A stretch of 42,396 bases of DNA from IMG/VR virus record IMGVR_UViG_2861064056_000003. One strand, 5' to 3'. This document shows, piece after piece, positions 24,901-40,190 of the stretch (position 1 is the first letter of the stretch; each line of letters starts with the position of its first letter). Made by a program: the position numbers and the translations under genes. Below the pieces are notes generated by a model that was not told the origin of the DNA, did no database searches, and was given only the letters and a program-made list of their open reading frames with translations. Origin of the DNA: a virus. Taxonomy: Duplodnaviria; Heunggongvirae; Uroviricota; Caudoviricetes.

Positions 24901-25389
24901 ATGGCTACCAACCCAAGAGAGCACGCCCGGCGAGTGCTGGACACGTTCTGGTGCGGGCGTGGTTTCCCTGTTGATCCAGCGAAAATTGCTCACGACATGG
25001 GATTAGATGTTTTTATTACCGATCTTCCTGGGAAAGTTTCTGGCGCACTGATTAAACAAAAAGATCAAGATCCAGCGATCTTTCTAAACAGTGATGACAA
25101 CAAAGTTCGTCAACGTTTTTCATGTGGGCATGAGTTGGGGCATTACATCGCCCGGCAAGCATCGCATAGCGATGAATATGAGTACGTTGATTTACGTGGC
25201 GAAACCGCAAGCGCCGGAACGCATCCTGATGAAATTTTTGCAAACAAGTTCGCAGCAGAACTTCTGATGCCGGTAGATGAGGTCAGAAAACTGCACGCTG
25301 ACGGTCAACCAAGTTATATAATGGCGCATTATTTTGGCGTATCTGACGATGCGATGACTTATCGTTTAAAGAACTTGAGGTTGGGGTAA
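24901..25389 (+). CDS. ImmA/IrrE-family zinc metallopeptidase (M78-type)
   Basis: RQRFSCGHELGHY signature (HEXXH after RxRF); strong RBS GGAGGAG; 162 aa. Confidence 0.7.
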   Translation: MATNPREHARRVLDTFWCGRGFPVDPAKIAHDMGLDVFITDLPGKVSGALIKQKDQDPAIFLNSDDNKVRQRFSCGHELGHYIARQASHSDEYEYVDLRGETASAGTHPDEIFANKFAAELLMPVDEVRKLHADGQPSYIMAHYFGVSDDAMTYRLKNLRLG

Positions 25390-25398
25390 CGCTTTAAA

Positions 25399-25914
25399 AT
25401 GCCATCGGATGACGATTTTAACAGCCGTTTCAAACAGGAAGTAGCACGCAGACTGAAGGATTCCCTCAACCTACACCGTCAGTTAGCAGAAGAGGTTGAG
25501 CCGGAGGACGATGAAACTCCGGTTCAGTCTCCTGACGAAGCTTCACCTCAGCCAAAGGTTTCGCACGCCCCCAAAAAAACGGCTGTCCGTATTCGCGGAA
25601 TAGCCAGAAAAAGAGCTGCCGAAGCTCGCAAAATGGCTGTAGCTGCGTCTAGCAAAAGAATTCCAACTGCTACACCCTCTCAACAAGTCACCCGTACTGA
25701 GAGTAAAATCTTGACCGAGTTCACATCTGTGAAACAGGTGAATTCACTTGATACCGAGCATGAGCGCAAACAACTCAACAACAAAGATTTTGAAGCAGAA
25801 ATCGCTCTAAAAAAACGATACGGGAAATGGTTCCTGATTATCCTTGCTTTCCAACTTCTGATAATGAATGGTGTATTTATTGCCGACGGCGCAGGTAAGC
25901 TGGAATTTGGGTGA
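25399..25914 (+). CDS. Charged protein with C-terminal TM segment, 3' end interrupted by IS1
   Basis: Start 10 nt after the ImmA-like stop; stop codon supplied by the IS1 end; frame continues in 26686..26780 once IS1 and one TSD copy are removed. Confidence 0.5.
   Translation: MPSDDDFNSRFKQEVARRLKDSLNLHRQLAEEVEPEDDETPVQSPDEASPQPKVSHAPKKTAVRIRGIARKRAAEARKMAVAASSKRIPTATPSQQVTRTESKILTEFTSVKQVNSLDTEHERKQLNNKDFEAEIALKKRYGKWFLIILAFQLLIMNGVFIADGAGKLEFG
25902..25909. repeat. Target-site duplication GGAATTTG, left copy
   Basis: Identical 8-mer immediately flanks both IS1 ends. Confidence 0.75.
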
Positions 25915-25964
25915 TGCTGCCAACTTACTGATTTAGTGTATGATGGTGTTTTTGAGGTGCTCCA

Positions 25965-26240
25965 GTGGCTTCTGTTTCTATCAGCTGTCCCTCCTGTTCA
26001 GCTACTGACGGGGTGGTGCGTAACGGCAAAAGCACCGCCGGACATCAGCGCTATCTCTGCTCTCACTGCCGTAAAACATGGCAACTGCAGTTCACTTACA
26101 CCGCTTCTCAACCCGGTACGCACCAGAAAATCATTGATATGGCCATGAATGGCGTTGGATGCCGGGCAACCGCCCGCATTATGGGCGTTGGCCTCAACAC
26201 GATTTTACGTCACTTAAAAAACTCAGGCCGCAGTCGGTAA
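25965..26240 (+). CDS. insA: IS1 InsA
   Basis: 91 aa [42 protein letters not shown]..., the IS1 InsA sequence. Confidence 0.9.
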
Positions 26241-26662
26241 CCTCGCGCATACAGCCGGGCAGTGATGTGATTGTCTGCGCTGAAATGGACGAACAGTGGG
26301 GCTACGTCGGTGCTAAATCACGTCAGCGCTGGCTGTTTTACGCGTATGACAGGATACGGAGGACGGTTGTGGCGCACGTCTTCGGTGAACGCACTCTGGC
26401 CACACTGGAGCGTCTTCTGAGCCTGCTGTCGGCCTTTGAGGTCGTGGTATGGATGACGGATGGCTGGCCGCTGTATGAATCCCGCCTGAAGGGAAAGCTG
26501 CACGTAATCAGCAAGCGTTACACTCAGCGAATTGAGCGGCATAACCTGAATCTGAGACAACATCTGGCAAGGCTGGGACGGAAGTCACTGTCGTTCTCAA
26601 AATCGGTGGAGCTGCATGACAAGGTCATCGGGCATTATCTGAACATAAAACACTATCAGTAA
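26159..26662 (+). CDS. insB: IS1 InsB (made as InsAB' by frameshift)
   Basis: 167 aa ORF with the IS1 InsB sequence (..[28 protein letters not shown]..). Confidence 0.85.
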
Positions 26663-26677
26663 GTTGGAGTCATTACC

Positions 26678-26685
26678 GGAATTTG
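26678..26685. repeat. Target-site duplication GGAATTTG, right copy
   Basis: Matches 25902..25909. Confidence 0.75.
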
Positions 26686-26708
26686 AGGATTTAACACTAC
26701 AGTTGTAC

Positions 26709-26780
26709 ATGGGCGGTACTTTGACAGAGGTATTCGGCCTCGTGCTGGTCGTGACAAAATACCTTTTTAAACGCAAGTAA
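26709..26780 (+). repeat. Copy 1 of a ~75-bp direct repeat encoding MGGTLTEVFGLVLVVTKYLFKRK
   Basis: ~92% identical to 30132..30203; here in frame with the IS1-interrupted gene 25399.. Confidence 0.6.
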
Positions 26781-27027
26781 CTCTCTCGGTCCAACAGTCT
26801 TTCGAAGGCCCTGATCAAAGGGCCTTGATAAATTAGCAGTGCGTTGAAAACAGATAGTTATTCCCATCAGTTCCAACGTAATACACATCAAAAAAATCAC
26901 CATTCTTTTGCTCTAACGTCAACACCTACCCTTAAAAAAATAATTCTCCAAGAATGAGAAAGTTATTGTGTGTATTAGATAAGATATGAGCTGACACATC
27001 TATGGCGTGGAGCCAAATTTAATATGA

Positions 27028-27059
27028 CAGTCCGCTCTGTGCCATAAGCGGACTGTCAA
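27028..27059 (-). terminator. Hairpin GACAGTCCGC-N12-GCGGACTGTC downstream of the low-GC gene
   Basis: Perfect 10-bp inverted repeat; A/T-rich on the minus-strand 3' side. Confidence 0.4.
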
Positions 27060-27242
27060 TAAACAGATTCACTTGTAAATCTTGAAGCTATACATATTTA
27101 CTTTCAATGATAAATAAAAGAACTATCCAAAAATCACTGAGAGCATATTTTAACTAACCCTCCGCTACTATTAACATAAATTTCACCCAACCATAATTAA
27201 ATTGATACATATAGCAACTTACCTTGATACGAATCATCTGGG

Positions 27243-27941
27243 TTATATTTTTCCATATTTTTTTCCGTCAAATCGAATCATGCCAGGATCAAGAAAATTA
27301 ATTAAATCGATTAACGCGTGCTGTATTCTGATTAGCCTTTCTTTATAAATTCCGATATCTCTTGTCATATTTATCACTTCATTGTTTAAATCTAAAAAAA
27401 ATGGCTCATTGATAAAGCAATTTTCCTTTGTGAAACTGCCGTAACCTATGCAATCAAATCCAGTATCTGTTGATATCAGCATCTTTTCTGCAATAGCTCT
27501 CTGCTCTCCTATGAAAAACATAAAATACTGACCAAAGACGTCTGTTTGGATTAATGAGTTAATATTGTTCTGTAATCTAATAAACTCCCTCATTTTTTTA
27601 TTTTTTTCTAGGCTAAGGTATTGAATGTCTATGCGGGCAGCTTCTGTCCATGCAAAAAACTGGGAAAAAAGAAAAACAGTATTGTTGATAACATAATCTT
27701 GTTGGCGCTTATTCCCATTATGATAAAACTCTTCAATGAACCCCAATTCTAATATATTATAAATACGGCTTTGTAAGTCTGAAGCTGAGCGAATTAACGG
27801 TTCAATATAGTACTGATGTTTTCTCCTTACATCCAGTGATTCATTGAGCTTGTTTATTCTATTCTGATTATAAGTAGATATAGCAATAGAGATTATAGCT
27901 ATTGCACCACTAATAAAGCTTGAAATTAATGCCGTACCCAT
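27243..27941 (-). CDS. Hypothetical membrane-anchored protein (232 aa), low GC, no recognised family
   Basis: N-terminal hydrophobic segment (ALISSFISGAIAIISIAI); RBS AAGGA; AT-rich codon usage unlike the rest of the prophage. Confidence 0.55.
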   Translation of the reverse strand: MGTALISSFISGAIAIISIAISTYNQNRINKLNESLDVRRKHQYYIEPLIRSASDLQSRIYNILELGFIEEFYHNGNKRQQDYVINNTVFLFSQFFAWTEAARIDIQYLSLEKNKKMREFIRLQNNINSLIQTDVFGQYFMFFIGEQRAIAEKMLISTDTGFDCIGYGSFTKENCFINEPFFLDLNNEVINMTRDIGIYKERLIRIQHALIDLINFLDPGMIRFDGKKYGKI

Positions 27942-28504
27942 CTAAAAGTCCTTTGATTCTTGCTTGGTTAACAAAATGACATAATTTTATTTAATGCCAT
28001 AACAACTTAACAATATATCATAATATGATTATTATGGTGTAGCTTGTCGCATCTACGCTCCATTACAAACAGATGTAAGATATAACCTATATGTTTTAGC
28101 CAGCAAATTCGAAAGCATTCAAAGTAGTCTCATCGAACTCTCGAAACCCTATGTCTTCGGGTATAAAATATTTAAATCCATTTGCATAATATCGACTCAT
28201 GTTTATTATATTCTCCCCATTCACCATTAAGATTTGACATTATTTTCAACAATCGGTTATTGCAAGATTGAAATATATTTTTACTTGACACAATATTCCA
28301 TGTAGCCCAGCGATTCGACTTACCCCCAACTATACGGACAATCTAAATTAAATCGATGATTTTTTGATACATTCTCCTCTCTCCATTACTTTATGTTTTT
28401 GTTCCCCAAAAATACCTTGCTCTCTAAAAAATAATTGTTCTTTAAGTTCAAAATCGAGATCTACATGAGCGTTAGATACAAAGCTAATATGTTGAAATGT
28501 CTTT

Positions 28505-28513
28505 CCCCCCCCC
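28505..28513. repeat. C9 homopolymer (G9 on the minus strand) in AT-rich ORF-free DNA
   Basis: Read directly; on the minus strand the tract follows an ATG opening a 55-codon ORF (28348..28515). Confidence 0.8.
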
Positions 28514-29129
28514 ATAACGGCATTGTTATCTAAACTATGTTACACAAATATAATATTACCCTTTCAACGTAATCCAAGAATAAGATTAATGCCATTATAT
28601 ATATCATAAATATGATATTTTGTATATTTTTATCATTTAGCCTTGATTGTACTAGGTGTACTCTCAACGAAGTAGGGAAAGTCTGTTCCTCGCTCACAGC
28701 TGCCCTTCAGTAAGCGAAAAAATGCCTACTCGGTGCCATATACAGCCATTGTTATTAACAGCAGGGAATAATTCAAAACTGAAATTAAATATCTACCTTT
28801 TACAGTAGAAATAGTTCCTCCAGGACACTATCCATTGCCGGGCACAATCACTCGGGGTATAACGATATAAAATATGTTCATGATAGTGCAGGTTCGTATA
28901 TTAAGTTCAGCAGCGAAAACATGCCTTACAGGTTTCCGGTTTTGGGAGCGTCGTTACAGGATCCTGCGCATACCGTTCCCATCTGTTGAATTAAAGGTTT
29001 CACAGCCTTTGCCGATATCACCTTTTACCTTACCTGTGATGCGTTCAGTGCTCAGCGTTGTTTACTGTAGCTCTCGGGACTGATTACAGACCGCGTCTTA
29101 AAAACCAATCCTTACTCTAAAGGGAATTC

Positions 29130-30053
29130 ATGAGATTAAAATACTCAGTACTCTTACTCGCCATTGCCCTTACAGGCTGTGATAACAAAAAAGATGAGAT
29201 CGGTTGTTCTTCGGAAATAACCCAGTCAGCTCTCATGGATTTATTAAAAAAATCTGCTTATGAAGGACTCTCTGAACAGGTCGATAAATACCCTGATGTC
29301 ACTAATCAGACCAAACGAAGCACACTGGACAAGATCAAACTAGCCATCTCTGAGATCTCCACAACATCAAGTGACACGGGCAGCACAATGAAAACTTGTG
29401 AAGGGACCGTGACGATGACTCTATCTGCGAACGAGTACGTCCAGCTTTCAGATGCTTACAGAAAGAATTTTAATCGTAATCTCGATAAGCAAATGGAAAG
29501 CCTGTTTTTGGAGAACAACGCAAACGCCTTTTCAAAACGTATCACCTACACCGTGCAGGCGACCGACGATCAGAAAAACGTTTTTGTAAAAACCTCTACT
29601 GATAATCCGATATCAGTGGGCGCCGCTTTACTGACATCGCTTTCCATTATCACCCCGATCGTTGAGCAGCAGAAAATCCAGCAGGCTAAGGATGCCCAAC
29701 AGAGTCAAATTGAAGCGGAACAACAGGTGCAACTCAGGGCGCAAGAACAGGCTAAGTATGAGGCGGAGAAGCAAATAGAGAGACAGGCACAACTTCAGCC
29801 GCAAAAAGCTGACAACCTTGATCAGTCCCGAATGGCATTTGCGAATGCCGACTCTGATTTGAGTACCGTCTGGAGCAAGTTAACCCCGGCGAAGAAAAAA
29901 GATTTGCTGCCTTCTCAGCGTCAGTGGATCAAAACTAAGGATGCTATGTGCGGTAAAGTTTCAATGCAGGGAACAGATGCTGAAGTCAAGAAAATGGTCG
30001 ACTGCCAGACGCAAATGACCCTTTCAAGAATCGCTTTCCTCAGAAACCAATAA
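29130..30053 (+). CDS. Lipoprotein with C-terminal DUF1311-like domain (LprI-type lysozyme inhibitor family)
   Basis: Lipobox LTGC after a signal peptide; Q-rich coiled region; C-terminal ..W.KL....K..L...Q..WIK..D..C.. pattern; RBS AAGGGA. Confidence 0.6.
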   Translation: MRLKYSVLLLAIALTGCDNKKDEIGCSSEITQSALMDLLKKSAYEGLSEQVDKYPDVTNQTKRSTLDKIKLAISEISTTSSDTGSTMKTCEGTVTMTLSANEYVQLSDAYRKNFNRNLDKQMESLFLENNANAFSKRITYTVQATDDQKNVFVKTSTDNPISVGAALLTSLSIITPIVEQQKIQQAKDAQQSQIEAEQQVQLRAQEQAKYEAEKQIERQAQLQPQKADNLDQSRMAFANADSDLSTVWSKLTPAKKKDLLPSQRQWIKTKDAMCGKVSMQGTDAEVKKMVDCQTQMTLSRIAFLRNQ

Positions 30054-37973: not shown

Positions 37974-40190
37974 ATGACCATTTTTAACGGCTTGTTAGAA
38001 GCGAAAAAAGGCGCGCTCAAAAACGGCGCGATCCCGGCGCTGGCCATCGCCATCGCCGCCCCTAACAAAAAAGTTGCCGAGAACATCATCATCGGCAAAT
38101 TGTGGGAAGCCTACCCTGACCACGGCGACAACTATTTCAAACCTAAAATCTGGGAAGATGCCCCGGGCCAACCGCGCCCAGGCGTCGGTGAGTTTGATGA
38201 GACGTTTGCCACAGAACACAGTTTTGATGGCGAAAAATGGGTAGTTAACACTCCTGTTGATTCAGATTGCAGTTCAGCAGATATCTCACAGGTTAGCGAC
38301 CTGATGAAACTGCCGGCTCGTGAACGATTCGCCGCCGTTCTGCTGTTCAGCCACGACGCCAACGAAGTCGACAGTGAATTGCTTGTGCAGACGCGTGAAT
38401 ACCTGGAGATGCTCGATAACAGTGATACTGACAGTGAGGATGAGGTTGACGCGTTTAACCGCATCGTTCTTGATGCCATGGTGGCGTGTAAGCCCATCGA
38501 GTACATGCATATTGCTGGATTGAATAATCTGGTACATGCAATTTTGGCAAGTTGCGATACCCAGGAACAAAACCCGACCAGTTGGACTATCTCCAAATTT
38601 ATAAAAAAATGGGTAGAGAATCCCGGTAAACGAGATGAAATGCTGCCGGAGGTAAAACCAGAAACAGCATCCGCACGTCCTTACAAACAGACTCACGCCA
38701 CTCTGGATCGTGAAATTGCCTGCGCCCTGTTACCTGTTGCCCCGGAAAAAATCACCCCCAGCATCCTGAAAGCGGCAGACGAAATAATCAGTCAGGACAG
38801 GGAAGATTTTAAACGCTGGTCAATGGCCTTGCGCACAACGGATCAGATCCTTGCCTATGACCGCGCATCAGTATTCGGTGTTATTCAGAGCGCCCCCGCA
38901 AAAGACACGTACCACTTCCCACAATCCCTGCGCAGTCACATCGACAACTGGCTGCAAGCTAACGGGCAGCGTGATGCAAATGCTGTTGAAGAGAAGCCAA
39001 AGGAAGCAGCACCCAAGGATGATGTAAAAGTCACCAACCACGGCGGCGGACGATTCTCAATTGATGGGATGATGTCAGAAACACCCTCAAATCAGGGCGA
39101 AAAAAGCGAAGCTGCAAATGCTGGAGAACGTAGTTTGCAGCAGTTGCGTGAGCAGTTTGTCACGCCTCGCCATGTGTATGACGTACCTGAAAATAACGCC
39201 GTATCACAGAGGGAACCTGCAGCTATTACCCTGGCAGAAGAGACTCCTCCACAAGAACAACTTAGCGAGCAGGTAAAGGATCTGGTGCAGAACGTTGACG
39301 CGCTGGTTGAGCGGATCCATGCCGAAGAGCACAAGCGGCAGAATGCAATCTCAGCTATCGAAACGGAGTTAAAGGACTCAGATGACACGGATAACCTGGC
39401 ATTGTGGAAGAACGTATTCAAAACCGATGAGCGCTTCACCAGTGCTTTCTCTCAGAATGGCGGCGGCACATCCATCAACGGCACTTATATAGCGATGAAA
39501 GCGACTCGCGAATTTGGGCCATTTGGTATTGGCTGGGGGGTAGAGGTGCTGGAGGAGCGCTTTGATAAAGGCGCACCAATAGTTCGCAAAAAACAGGTTG
39601 GTGAAAAAATAGAATGGGATCTGATTCAAGACGGTGTTGGCGGGTACCTATGTGAAATGCACCACACCATGAAAGTGAGAGTCTGGTACATATTGAATGG
39701 GGTACGCGGTGAGTCCGAGGCTTACGGATGCACACCTTATATCTACGACACTAAATACGGACCAACAAGCGACGGCGAAGCACCGAAGAAATCCTGGACG
39801 GATGCTGTTAAGAAAGCGCTATCCCCTCTCGGATTCAGCGCCGATATTTTCATGGGCCTGTACGACAATCCGGAATACCGCCAGAGGAATAAAGCTGAGT
39901 TTGATATCAAGAATGCCAGCGAGAATGCGGAAGATGCTACCCGTCTGCGTAAGGAACTGGATGAGAAGCTTATCAACGTTGCCAATACGCTGGCCGCCGC
40001 GGTAACCGCCAACGAAGTAAACAAGGTATTTGGCCTCATCGCCCGCGAAGTGGATGTACACAGGAAAGCAGCGGAAACCAAAGGCGATAAAGAATATTCA
40101 TCGTATCTGGGATCACGTCTGCGCCGTATCACCGACATTAAAACTGAACGCCTCGCCGCCCTTACCGCTGCACAGGAGCAAACAGCATGA
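37974..40190 (+). CDS. Rad52/Sak-like single-strand annealing protein with ~480-aa N-terminal extension
   Basis: C-terminal half has YIAMKATREFGPFGIGWG and SWTDAVKKALSPLGFSADIFMGLYD, resembling Rad52-family motifs (YIEG...ANE.FG.NGW and TDA.KRAL..FGN..G..LYD); acidic linkers; 738 aa. Confidence 0.5.
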   Translation: MTIFNGLLEAKKGALKNGAIPALAIAIAAPNKKVAENIIIGKLWEAYPDHGDNYFKPKIWEDAPGQPRPGVGEFDETFATEHSFDGEKWVVNTPVDSDCSSADISQVSDLMKLPARERFAAVLLFSHDANEVDSELLVQTREYLEMLDNSDTDSEDEVDAFNRIVLDAMVACKPIEYMHIAGLNNLVHAILASCDTQEQNPTSWTISKFIKKWVENPGKRDEMLPEVKPETASARPYKQTHATLDREIACALLPVAPEKITPSILKAADEIISQDREDFKRWSMALRTTDQILAYDRASVFGVIQSAPAKDTYHFPQSLRSHIDNWLQANGQRDANAVEEKPKEAAPKDDVKVTNHGGGRFSIDGMMSETPSNQGEKSEAANAGERSLQQLREQFVTPRHVYDVPENNAVSQREPAAITLAEETPPQEQLSEQVKDLVQNVDALVERIHAEEHKRQNAISAIETELKDSDDTDNLALWKNVFKTDERFTSAFSQNGGGTSINGTYIAMKATREFGPFGIGWGVEVLEERFDKGAPIVRKKQVGEKIEWDLIQDGVGGYLCEMHHTMKVRVWYILNGVRGESEAYGCTPYIYDTKYGPTSDGEAPKKSWTDAVKKALSPLGFSADIFMGLYDNPEYRQRNKAEFDIKNASENAEDATRLRKELDEKLINVANTLAAAVTANEVNKVFGLIAREVDVHRKAAETKGDKEYSSYLGSRLRRITDIKTERLAALTAAQEQTA

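Follow-up and report, generated by a model that had tools for sequence, protein, structure and literature searches.

A solitary low-GC gene of an Escherichia coli lambdoid prophage encodes a distant homolog of the membrane partner of reverse transcriptase-nitrilase defense systems

The gene and its expression signals

The 42,396-nucleotide IMG/VR virus record IMGVR_UViG_2861064056_000003 (referred to here as the window, meaning the whole stretch of DNA that was analyzed) represents an Escherichia coli lambdoid prophage. Among the accessory genes between its replication module and the Q antiterminator lies an open reading frame (ORF) on the minus strand (27243..27941, ATG start) that encodes a protein of 232 amino acids (aa), WP_000536231.1. 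Sequence comparison identifies this protein as a distant, stand-alone relative of the transmembrane (TM) component of anti-phage reverse transcriptase (RT)-nitrilase systems.

In RefSeq, identical DNA is annotated as a coding sequence (CDS) for a "hypothetical protein" or "lysogenic protein." The guanine-plus-cytosine (GC) content of the CDS is 32.0%, and 500-bp intervals over positions 27001-28500 have GC fractions of 0.318 to 0.324, compared with 0.45 to 0.57 in most of the window (backbone, ~50%). Given the base composition of the region, an open frame as long as 232 codons would arise by chance with a probability of 1.7e-9 per start, or ~1.4e-4 expected occurrences in the whole window. As the ratio of nonsynonymous to synonymous substitution rates (dN/dS) between the CDS and three orthologs was 0.12 to 0.25, the gene is under purifying selection. 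The gene is real, as the ORF list, the identical RefSeq CDS, the homologs, and the structure model described below also indicate.

A ribosome-binding site (RBS; AAAGGA, 27949..27954, minus strand) is located 7 nt 5' of the ATG. Both the RBS and the start codon are kept in the record of the provirus P2-EC58, where they are annotated. A terminator scan identified a hairpin resembling an intrinsic terminator on the same strand (27025..27058), 185 nt beyond the stop codon and inside the conserved cassette described below; its 13-bp stem, with 7 GC pairs, precedes the T-rich tail TATTAAATTT. An initial annotation, made from the DNA letters alone, had already singled out the AT richness of the gene, its own RBS, and the downstream hairpin. 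These three observations were confirmed, and the strand, which had been left unstated, was found to be minus.

A single-pass membrane protein with a conserved cytoplasmic domain

Hydropathy analysis of 54 aligned relatives revealed one qualifying hydrophobic segment, with a mean of 2.37 for the best 19-residue segment versus 1.09 for the next best. In the window, the codons for this N-terminal TM helix (residues ~3-23) occupy 27873..27935 on the minus strand. Lysine and arginine residues were in excess on the C-terminal over the N-terminal flank of the helix in 53 of the 54 relatives; an N-out/C-in orientation is therefore predicted, with the soluble domain in the cytoplasm and a very short periplasmic N terminus of only 2-4 residues outside the membrane. 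Judged from its sequence, the product is a single-pass inner-membrane protein carrying a helical cytoplasmic domain of ~200 aa.

An AlphaFold2 (AF2) model built from the 54 relatives was confident, with a predicted local distance difference test score (pLDDT) of 87.6 and a predicted template-modeling score (pTM) of 0.79. In the model, the TM helix runs on into a long helix (residues 3-65), and the remainder of the chain forms a bundle of helices with a single small beta-hairpin. The hydropathy profile, the charge distribution, and the AF2 model thus agree with the architecture put forward in the initial annotation, an N-terminal TM helix in front of a soluble domain of ~200 aa. The alignment contains 23 invariant positions, most of them polar, including D55, Q57, S58, R59, N62, Q94, W98, E100, R103, E146-Q147-R148, and D218. 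This density of invariant polar residues suggests a defined site for binding or catalysis, as opposed to a mere pore.

Homology to the TM component of RT-nitrilase systems

Scans of the protein against Pfam and NCBIfam returned no significant match, in keeping with the remark in the initial annotation that no motif could be placed. However, the PADLOC profile RTasTM (described as DRT) matches the window protein (expect value [E], 1.8e-5), and the homology to RTasTM supersedes that remark. Over its full length, the protein also matches PHROG 5606 (E, 7e-163), a family to which no function has been assigned. A PDB sequence search with the family profile returned nothing, and no specific structural relative was present in the PDB or in viral structure libraries.

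The match to RTasTM extends across the family, as all 54 aligned relatives match the profile (best E, 9.8e-11) and 42 of the 54 also match a second RTasTM model. A relative from an experimentally validated system is the single-TM (1TM) protein of the RT-nitrilase defense system of E. coli E101, for which we used the sequence listed by Rousset et al. 2022 in their Table S2A (PMC9122126). This protein, which belongs to the system called Rst_RT-nitrilase-Tm in DefenseFinder, to RTasTM in PADLOC, and to Mestre cluster 1858 of UG5-large (DRT class 3), is matched from end to end by both PADLOC models (E, 5e-164 and 1e-122). Alignment of our family profile with the single E101 sequence in hhalign gave a probability of 95.9% (E, 5e-9), and alignment with a profile of 15 E101-type proteins gave 96.4% (E, 1.4e-9) over 131 columns.

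The two proteins are also alike in architecture. The E101 1TM protein has 229 aa, compared with 232 aa for the window protein, and both have one N-terminal TM helix with lysine and arginine on its C-terminal flank, followed by a helical domain of ~200 aa. In the AF2 model of an E101-type protein (pLDDT, 84.5), the structural elements follow the same order along the whole length, beta-hairpin included; this is a match in the order of elements, as the models were not superposed. Positions R59, Y83, T88, Q94, W98, R103, E146, Q147, G151, C164, and Y167 are conserved in both groups, and in E. coli both genes are carried by temperate phages or satellites as AT-rich cargo.

The groups nevertheless differ considerably in sequence. 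Identity to the E101 1TM protein is only ~21-25% and is confined to the aligned core (BLASTP, 25% over 97 residues). The window family has invariant residues of its own that are not among the positions shared with the RT-linked clade, namely, D55, Q57, S58, N62, E100, R148, Q207, D218, and P219. At 90% identity, the E101-type clade falls into 29 clusters and is restricted to Enterobacterales; the window family comprises 825 representatives from many phyla. The sequence and model comparisons thus establish a homology that is real but distant, with the same architecture in both groups; the window family belongs to the same superfamily as the RT-nitrilase partner, not to the same clade.

A second membrane protein that accompanies RT-nitrilases is Drt1b, to which 1 of the 54 relatives has a marginal PADLOC match (E, 0.005). 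The window protein itself has no significant similarity to Drt1b, which differs from it further in being operonic with drt1.

Extent of the family and fusion proteins

One search returned 290 homologs, and an exhaustive search returned 825 representatives at 50% identity. Members originate from Proteobacteria, Acidobacteriota, Cyanobacteria, Actinomycetota, Bacteroidota, Nitrospirota, and metagenome-assembled genomes (MAGs) labeled Firmicutes. The NCBI family name "lysogenic protein" traces to GenBank entry AJ512683, "Bacteriophage P2-EC58 proviral Z-region, ORF1" (CAD54907). This ORF1 product is 92.9% identical to the window protein over residues 23-232 (tblastn) and, together with the PHROG 5606 match and the RefSeq name, places the window protein in the "lysogenic protein" family by full-length similarity.

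Two family representatives carry C-terminal extensions. The extension of P0138 (622 aa) contains a GDSGS motif and is similar to S1 serine proteases of the streptogrisin/chymotrypsin type (best PDB E, 9e-6); P0138 furthermore has an additional signal-like segment at its N terminus. For the extension of P0123 (557 aa), the PDB matches were only marginal (E of at least 0.03), a match to NAL1_N stayed below threshold, and the corresponding position reads GDVGS. The occurrence of the domain both in fusions with S1 serine proteases and in operons with RT-nitrilases suggests that it may serve various effectors as a sensor or adaptor anchored in the membrane.

Solitary organization

In the two intact loci checked, E101-type genes overlap the 3' end of an RVT_1 gene encoding ~960 aa by 4 or 8 bp. 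At a third E101-type locus (L103), the upstream gene encodes a 341-aa product without an RVT_1 match. In contrast to the organization of the RT-nitrilase plus TM system, the window gene is not located immediately downstream of an RT-nitrilase gene. No RT was detected among the accessory genes of the window, the neighbors being an ImmA/IrrE peptidase gene and its pair partner encoding a TM protein, a gene for an LprI-family lipoprotein, and one for an ORF6N protein. Likewise, an adjacent RT gene was found in 0 of the 70 window-family loci where a gene could be called, and a search of these 70 loci for recurrent partners revealed none except for one lineage-specific operon, discussed below. As the solitary family (825 representatives) is far larger and more widely distributed than the RT-linked clade (29 clusters), the solitary state looks ancestral.

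A mobile cassette of probable P2 Z-region origin

The gene is part of a mobile 1.74-kb cassette (26971..28700, minus strand) that comprises a leader, the gene, and a 3' region and was delimited by blastn against P2-EC58 (L008), a P2-like prophage (L089), and an island (L099). Positions 26971-28700 of the window align with P2-EC58 over 1,741 bp at 86% identity, with ~95% identity in the CDS and ~75-80% in the leader. In a complete genome, an 86%-identical cassette is located between the tail sheath gene FI and the tail fiber assembly gene G of a P2-like prophage. This Z/fun position is the phage exclusion locus of P2 and one of three loci in P2-like phages that hold horizontally acquired genes (PMC3091744), here genes for lysogenic conversion. 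The likeness to P2 Z/fun is positional only, and the Z/fun sequence itself was not compared; copies of the cassette fill this locus in P2-EC58 and in other P2-like prophages. In contrast, the window copy is not located between G and FI but belongs to a lambdoid prophage, in which it is bordered by the replication/nin-like genes on one side and by the Q antiterminator region on the other; what it shares with the Z-region is the cassette, including ~85 bp of P2 backbone.

This scrap of P2 backbone forms the 3' end of the cassette (26971..27060, minus strand) and corresponds to an intergenic element behind gene G in P2-like prophages. The ~85-bp element directly follows gene G in both of the two genomes inspected, whatever the cargo of the Z-region, and ~290 further E. 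coli genomes match only these last ~85 bp of the cassette, terminator hairpin included. Because the backbone scrap was carried along, the most likely source of the cassette in the lambdoid prophage is a P2-like phage with the cassette in its Z/fun locus. It would thus document the transfer of accessory cargo, together with a piece of P2 backbone, from a P2-type hotspot into a lambdoid prophage. Between G and FI, the E. coli P2-like prophages L105 and L106 carry different cargo: one has genes for an acetyltransferase and a helix-turn-helix protein, the other a gene for a hypothetical protein of 269 aa. This confirms that cargo is exchanged in the Z-region, a hotspot with the same ~85-bp element at its border.

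A third insertion context (L099) is an island with AlpA and DUF4238 genes, where the protein is 85% identical and the DNA, including ~570 nt of the leader, is 75% identical. The enterobacterial orthologs (window, L008, L089, L099, L101, and L002) all have GC contents of 31-33% in hosts as different as E. coli and Providencia; the base composition of the gene has not drifted toward that of its hosts. In total, the cassette was found in 412 of 5,426 complete E. coli genomes (~7.5%), in 408 of them at ≥99% identity, and many of the genomes listed are labeled sequence type 131 (ST131). The inverted repeats annotated in the P2-EC58 record share only a 12-bp match between their arms and thus provide no evidence that the cassette is a transposable unit.

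The leader, which travels with the gene, is ~760 nt long (27942..28700, minus strand) and has no RefSeq feature. A search of positions 26600-29200 against Rfam at E of ≤1 returned nothing, so that the leader has no Rfam match either. It contains two small ORFs on the minus strand encoding 55 aa (28348-28515) and 43 aa (28096-28227), with peptide homologs at the same positions in L099; apart from these, the peptides match nothing else in the loci examined. In the P2-type copies (L008 and L089), both small ORFs are broken, by a 4-nt deletion and an in-frame stop, and both are missing upstream of distant relatives; they were consequently rejected as required partner genes. They could be small regulators or remnants of older genes. 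Within the leader, a patch at 28593-28652 is identical to P2-EC58 at 59 of 60 positions, with flanks at ~70-80% identity, and could be a regulatory element. The low-GC stretch upstream of the gene that is otherwise unannotated measures 1.2 kb.

Genomic contexts of relatives

Several relatives are located in mobile elements or next to defense-related genes. A Providencia relative lies in a P2-like prophage remnant beside an AAA_15 system, and another relative is cargo of an integrative and conjugative element (ICE). In Lonsdalea quercina, a 186/P2-like prophage (L097, 3715-7729) carries a CI repressor, a PARIS-like pair of AAA_15 and DUF4435 genes, an integrase, and a family homolog that overlaps the stop codon of the integrase gene by 4 bp; two candidate defense genes are thus stacked at the end of this prophage. 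Further relatives were observed beside SIR2 plus HerA (in Xanthomonadaceae), beside a type I HsdR gene, beside an AAA_11/12 helicase with a restriction endonuclease domain, and beside an ORC/CDC6-like ATPase.

Proposed function and alternative explanations

Our preferred interpretation, which we hold with about as much doubt as confidence, is that the gene encodes an autonomous anti-phage module that is expressed by the lysogen and acts at the cytoplasmic face of the membrane. The membrane-tethered cytoplasmic domain would recognize a cue of infection at the inner face of the membrane, after which the infection would be halted early or the cell would be killed or arrested (abortive infection). 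The initial annotation had guessed at a superinfection exclusion or abortive infection gene. The homology to RTasTM, the presence of the cassette in the Z/fun locus, and the prophage, ICE, and defense neighborhoods of relatives speak, if indirectly, for a role in defense, but the predicted cytoplasmic position of the domain does not favor a block of injection. The Z/fun locus was not covered by Rousset 2022. In a 2026 survey (PMC13586616), most genes of unknown function in P4 defense hotspots proved defensive when tested (6/8), which is consistent with the present case without being evidence for it; the same survey reported near-identical P2 and P4 cargo in other mobile elements.

More tentatively, and with clearly less confidence, we suggest that the whole family might be a widespread, autonomous single-gene anti-phage system with an undescribed sensor or enzyme domain. 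RT-nitrilase systems, and some S1 proteases, would then have recruited one branch of this family as a membrane partner, and the TM component of DRT1/UG5 would be an independent immune module to which the RT was a later add-on. If true, this would constitute a very compact single-gene defense (~700 bp of coding sequence) present in many bacterial phyla, and it would provide a handle on the role of the membrane partner in RT-nitrilase systems, as the stand-alone relative can be studied without the RT. A defensive function of the cassette could also affect which therapeutic phages work against the pandemic clone ST131.

Several observations weigh against a defensive role. Many relatives reside in plain chromosomal islets, and in Acidobacteriota, Cyanobacteria, and other phyla many are found among ordinary chromosomal genes. 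One sublineage is even embedded in an operon with carboxyltransferase, amidohydrolase, and biotin carboxylase genes, with stop and start codons overlapping or abutting in most loci (L045, L047, L050, L054, L061, L067, and L072; Blastocatellia/Acidobacteria and MAGs labeled "Heliomicrobium"). As its members are 60-96% identical to one another, this placement is probably the result of a single event, and the three enzymes were rejected as family-wide partners, being confined to the one sublineage. In itself, an operon of the acyl-CoA carboxylase type is an odd location for a putative defense gene. No defense family in PADLOC, PHROGs, Pfam, or NCBIfam claims the protein as a system. In the literature, no functional study or phenotype was found for the window protein or for any solitary relative.

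The expression signals and the published RT systems add to these reservations. The promoter annotated in the P2-EC58 record was rejected for the window, as its -10 element (TAGAAT) is not kept and reads TAGGGT, and generic promoter-like matches in the gene region were no commoner than in shuffled sequence. With respect to RT-nitrilase systems, Drt1b adjoins ~18% of drt1 genes and was not required in the system that was examined, a channel role like that of Hailong being the only one suggested for it (PMC13275509), and a UG5-large system without the TM gene was still active (PMC13436386). Finally, the predicted topology counts against an exclusion-type variant of the anti-phage interpretation, as discussed below.

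Alternatively, the gene may serve lysogenic conversion or membrane physiology rather than defense, for instance by modulating an envelope or stress process of the host, and its defense neighbors would merely reflect shared accessory hotspots. The ordinary chromosomal neighborhoods, the carboxylase operon, and the lack of a phenotype in the literature fit this possibility, and the occurrence in many phyla of a protein with highly conserved polar residues is reminiscent of a housekeeping enzyme. We nevertheless consider this explanation, the strongest of the alternatives, to be rather unlikely. Experiments have been reported for one relative only, and that relative is part of an anti-phage system. 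Furthermore, the enterobacterial gene is repeatedly found as cargo of prophages, an ICE, and islands and occupies the exclusion locus of P2, and its GC content of ~32% whatever the host, together with neighbors that differ between close relatives, is typical of mobile accessory genes.

An autonomous module also has to be weighed against one that works with a partner in trans, either an RT-nitrilase (UG1/UG5) or another effector encoded elsewhere in the genome. The RT-linked cousins are operonic with an RT, and Mestre et al. 2022, in the passage that cites Rousset 2022 (PMC9226505), state that the TM partner is necessary for E101 RT-nitrilase defense. The fusions to proteases likewise indicate that the domain can be one half of a two-part machine. 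However, a search for the E101 type of RT-nitrilase, the one RT type searched, detected it in 38 of the 5,426 complete E. coli genomes, compared with the 412 that carry the cassette, and no accession was shared among those listed. An E101-type RT acting in trans is too rare in E. coli to account for the cassette and was rejected. Given that there is also no RT among the accessory genes of the window or beside any of the 70 loci and that the family has no recurrent partner, we regard dependence on a trans-encoded partner as quite improbable.

Classical superinfection exclusion, in which a protein of the Imm, SieA, Sie2009, or HK97 gp15 type blocks genome injection at the envelope, appears improbable to a similar degree. 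A small single-pass inner-membrane protein of a prophage, with expression signals of its own and a copy in the Z/fun locus of P2, would fit such a role. Indeed, RexB, Imm, SieA/SieB, Sie2009, HK97 gp15, and the TM effectors of CBASS, Hailong, and SLATT are likewise prophage-borne and membrane-located and offer a plausible fit to an anti-infection protein expressed by the lysogen. However, none of these proteins has sequence or fold similarity to the window protein, and searches of PHROGs, PADLOC, and Pfam revealed no similarity to known exclusion families. By prediction, no more than 2-4 residues lie outside the membrane, and the conserved domain is cytoplasmic in 53 of 54 relatives. Members of the family are, moreover, present in Gram-positive phyla and in nonphage contexts. 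The channel-type effectors (RexB, SLATT, HalA, and CBASS) differ in having several TM helices, while the window protein has one and a large, highly conserved cytoplasmic domain.

That the gene is a decaying, nonfunctional orphan of an RT-nitrilase plus TM system that lost its RT is very improbable: the long leader without an annotated gene and its two small ORFs, broken in some copies, could be read as remnants, but >400 genomes carry an intact copy of the gene, purifying selection acts on it, the small-ORF peptides have no counterpart elsewhere in the loci examined, and the solitary family far exceeds the RT-linked clade in size and breadth.

Neighboring genes in the window

The ImmA/IrrE (Peptidase_M78) gene and its partner (24901-25914, plus strand) follow each other at a distance of 10 nt, and the product of the second gene has a hydrophobic C terminus and no Pfam match. 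Both genes are encoded on the other strand from the prophage backbone and may form an accessory module of their own. The neighboring gene has been truncated by the insertion of an IS1 element (~25920-26700; InsA, 25965-26240; InsB, 26159-26662). The ORF at 25399-25914 encodes 171 aa here, compared with 201 aa (WP_001138663.1) in genomes without the insertion, and the offset of ~776 bp fits IS1 plus a target duplication.

On the other side of the cassette, a moron at 29130-30053 (plus strand) encodes a 307-aa lipoprotein-like protein with a signal that ends in LTGC, a Q/E-rich middle, and a C-terminal LprI (lysozyme inhibitor) domain. In the early left region, beside a Gp157-family gene, the gene at 37974-40190 (plus strand) encodes a 738-aa hypothetical protein (WP_000151806.1) with no Pfam domain.

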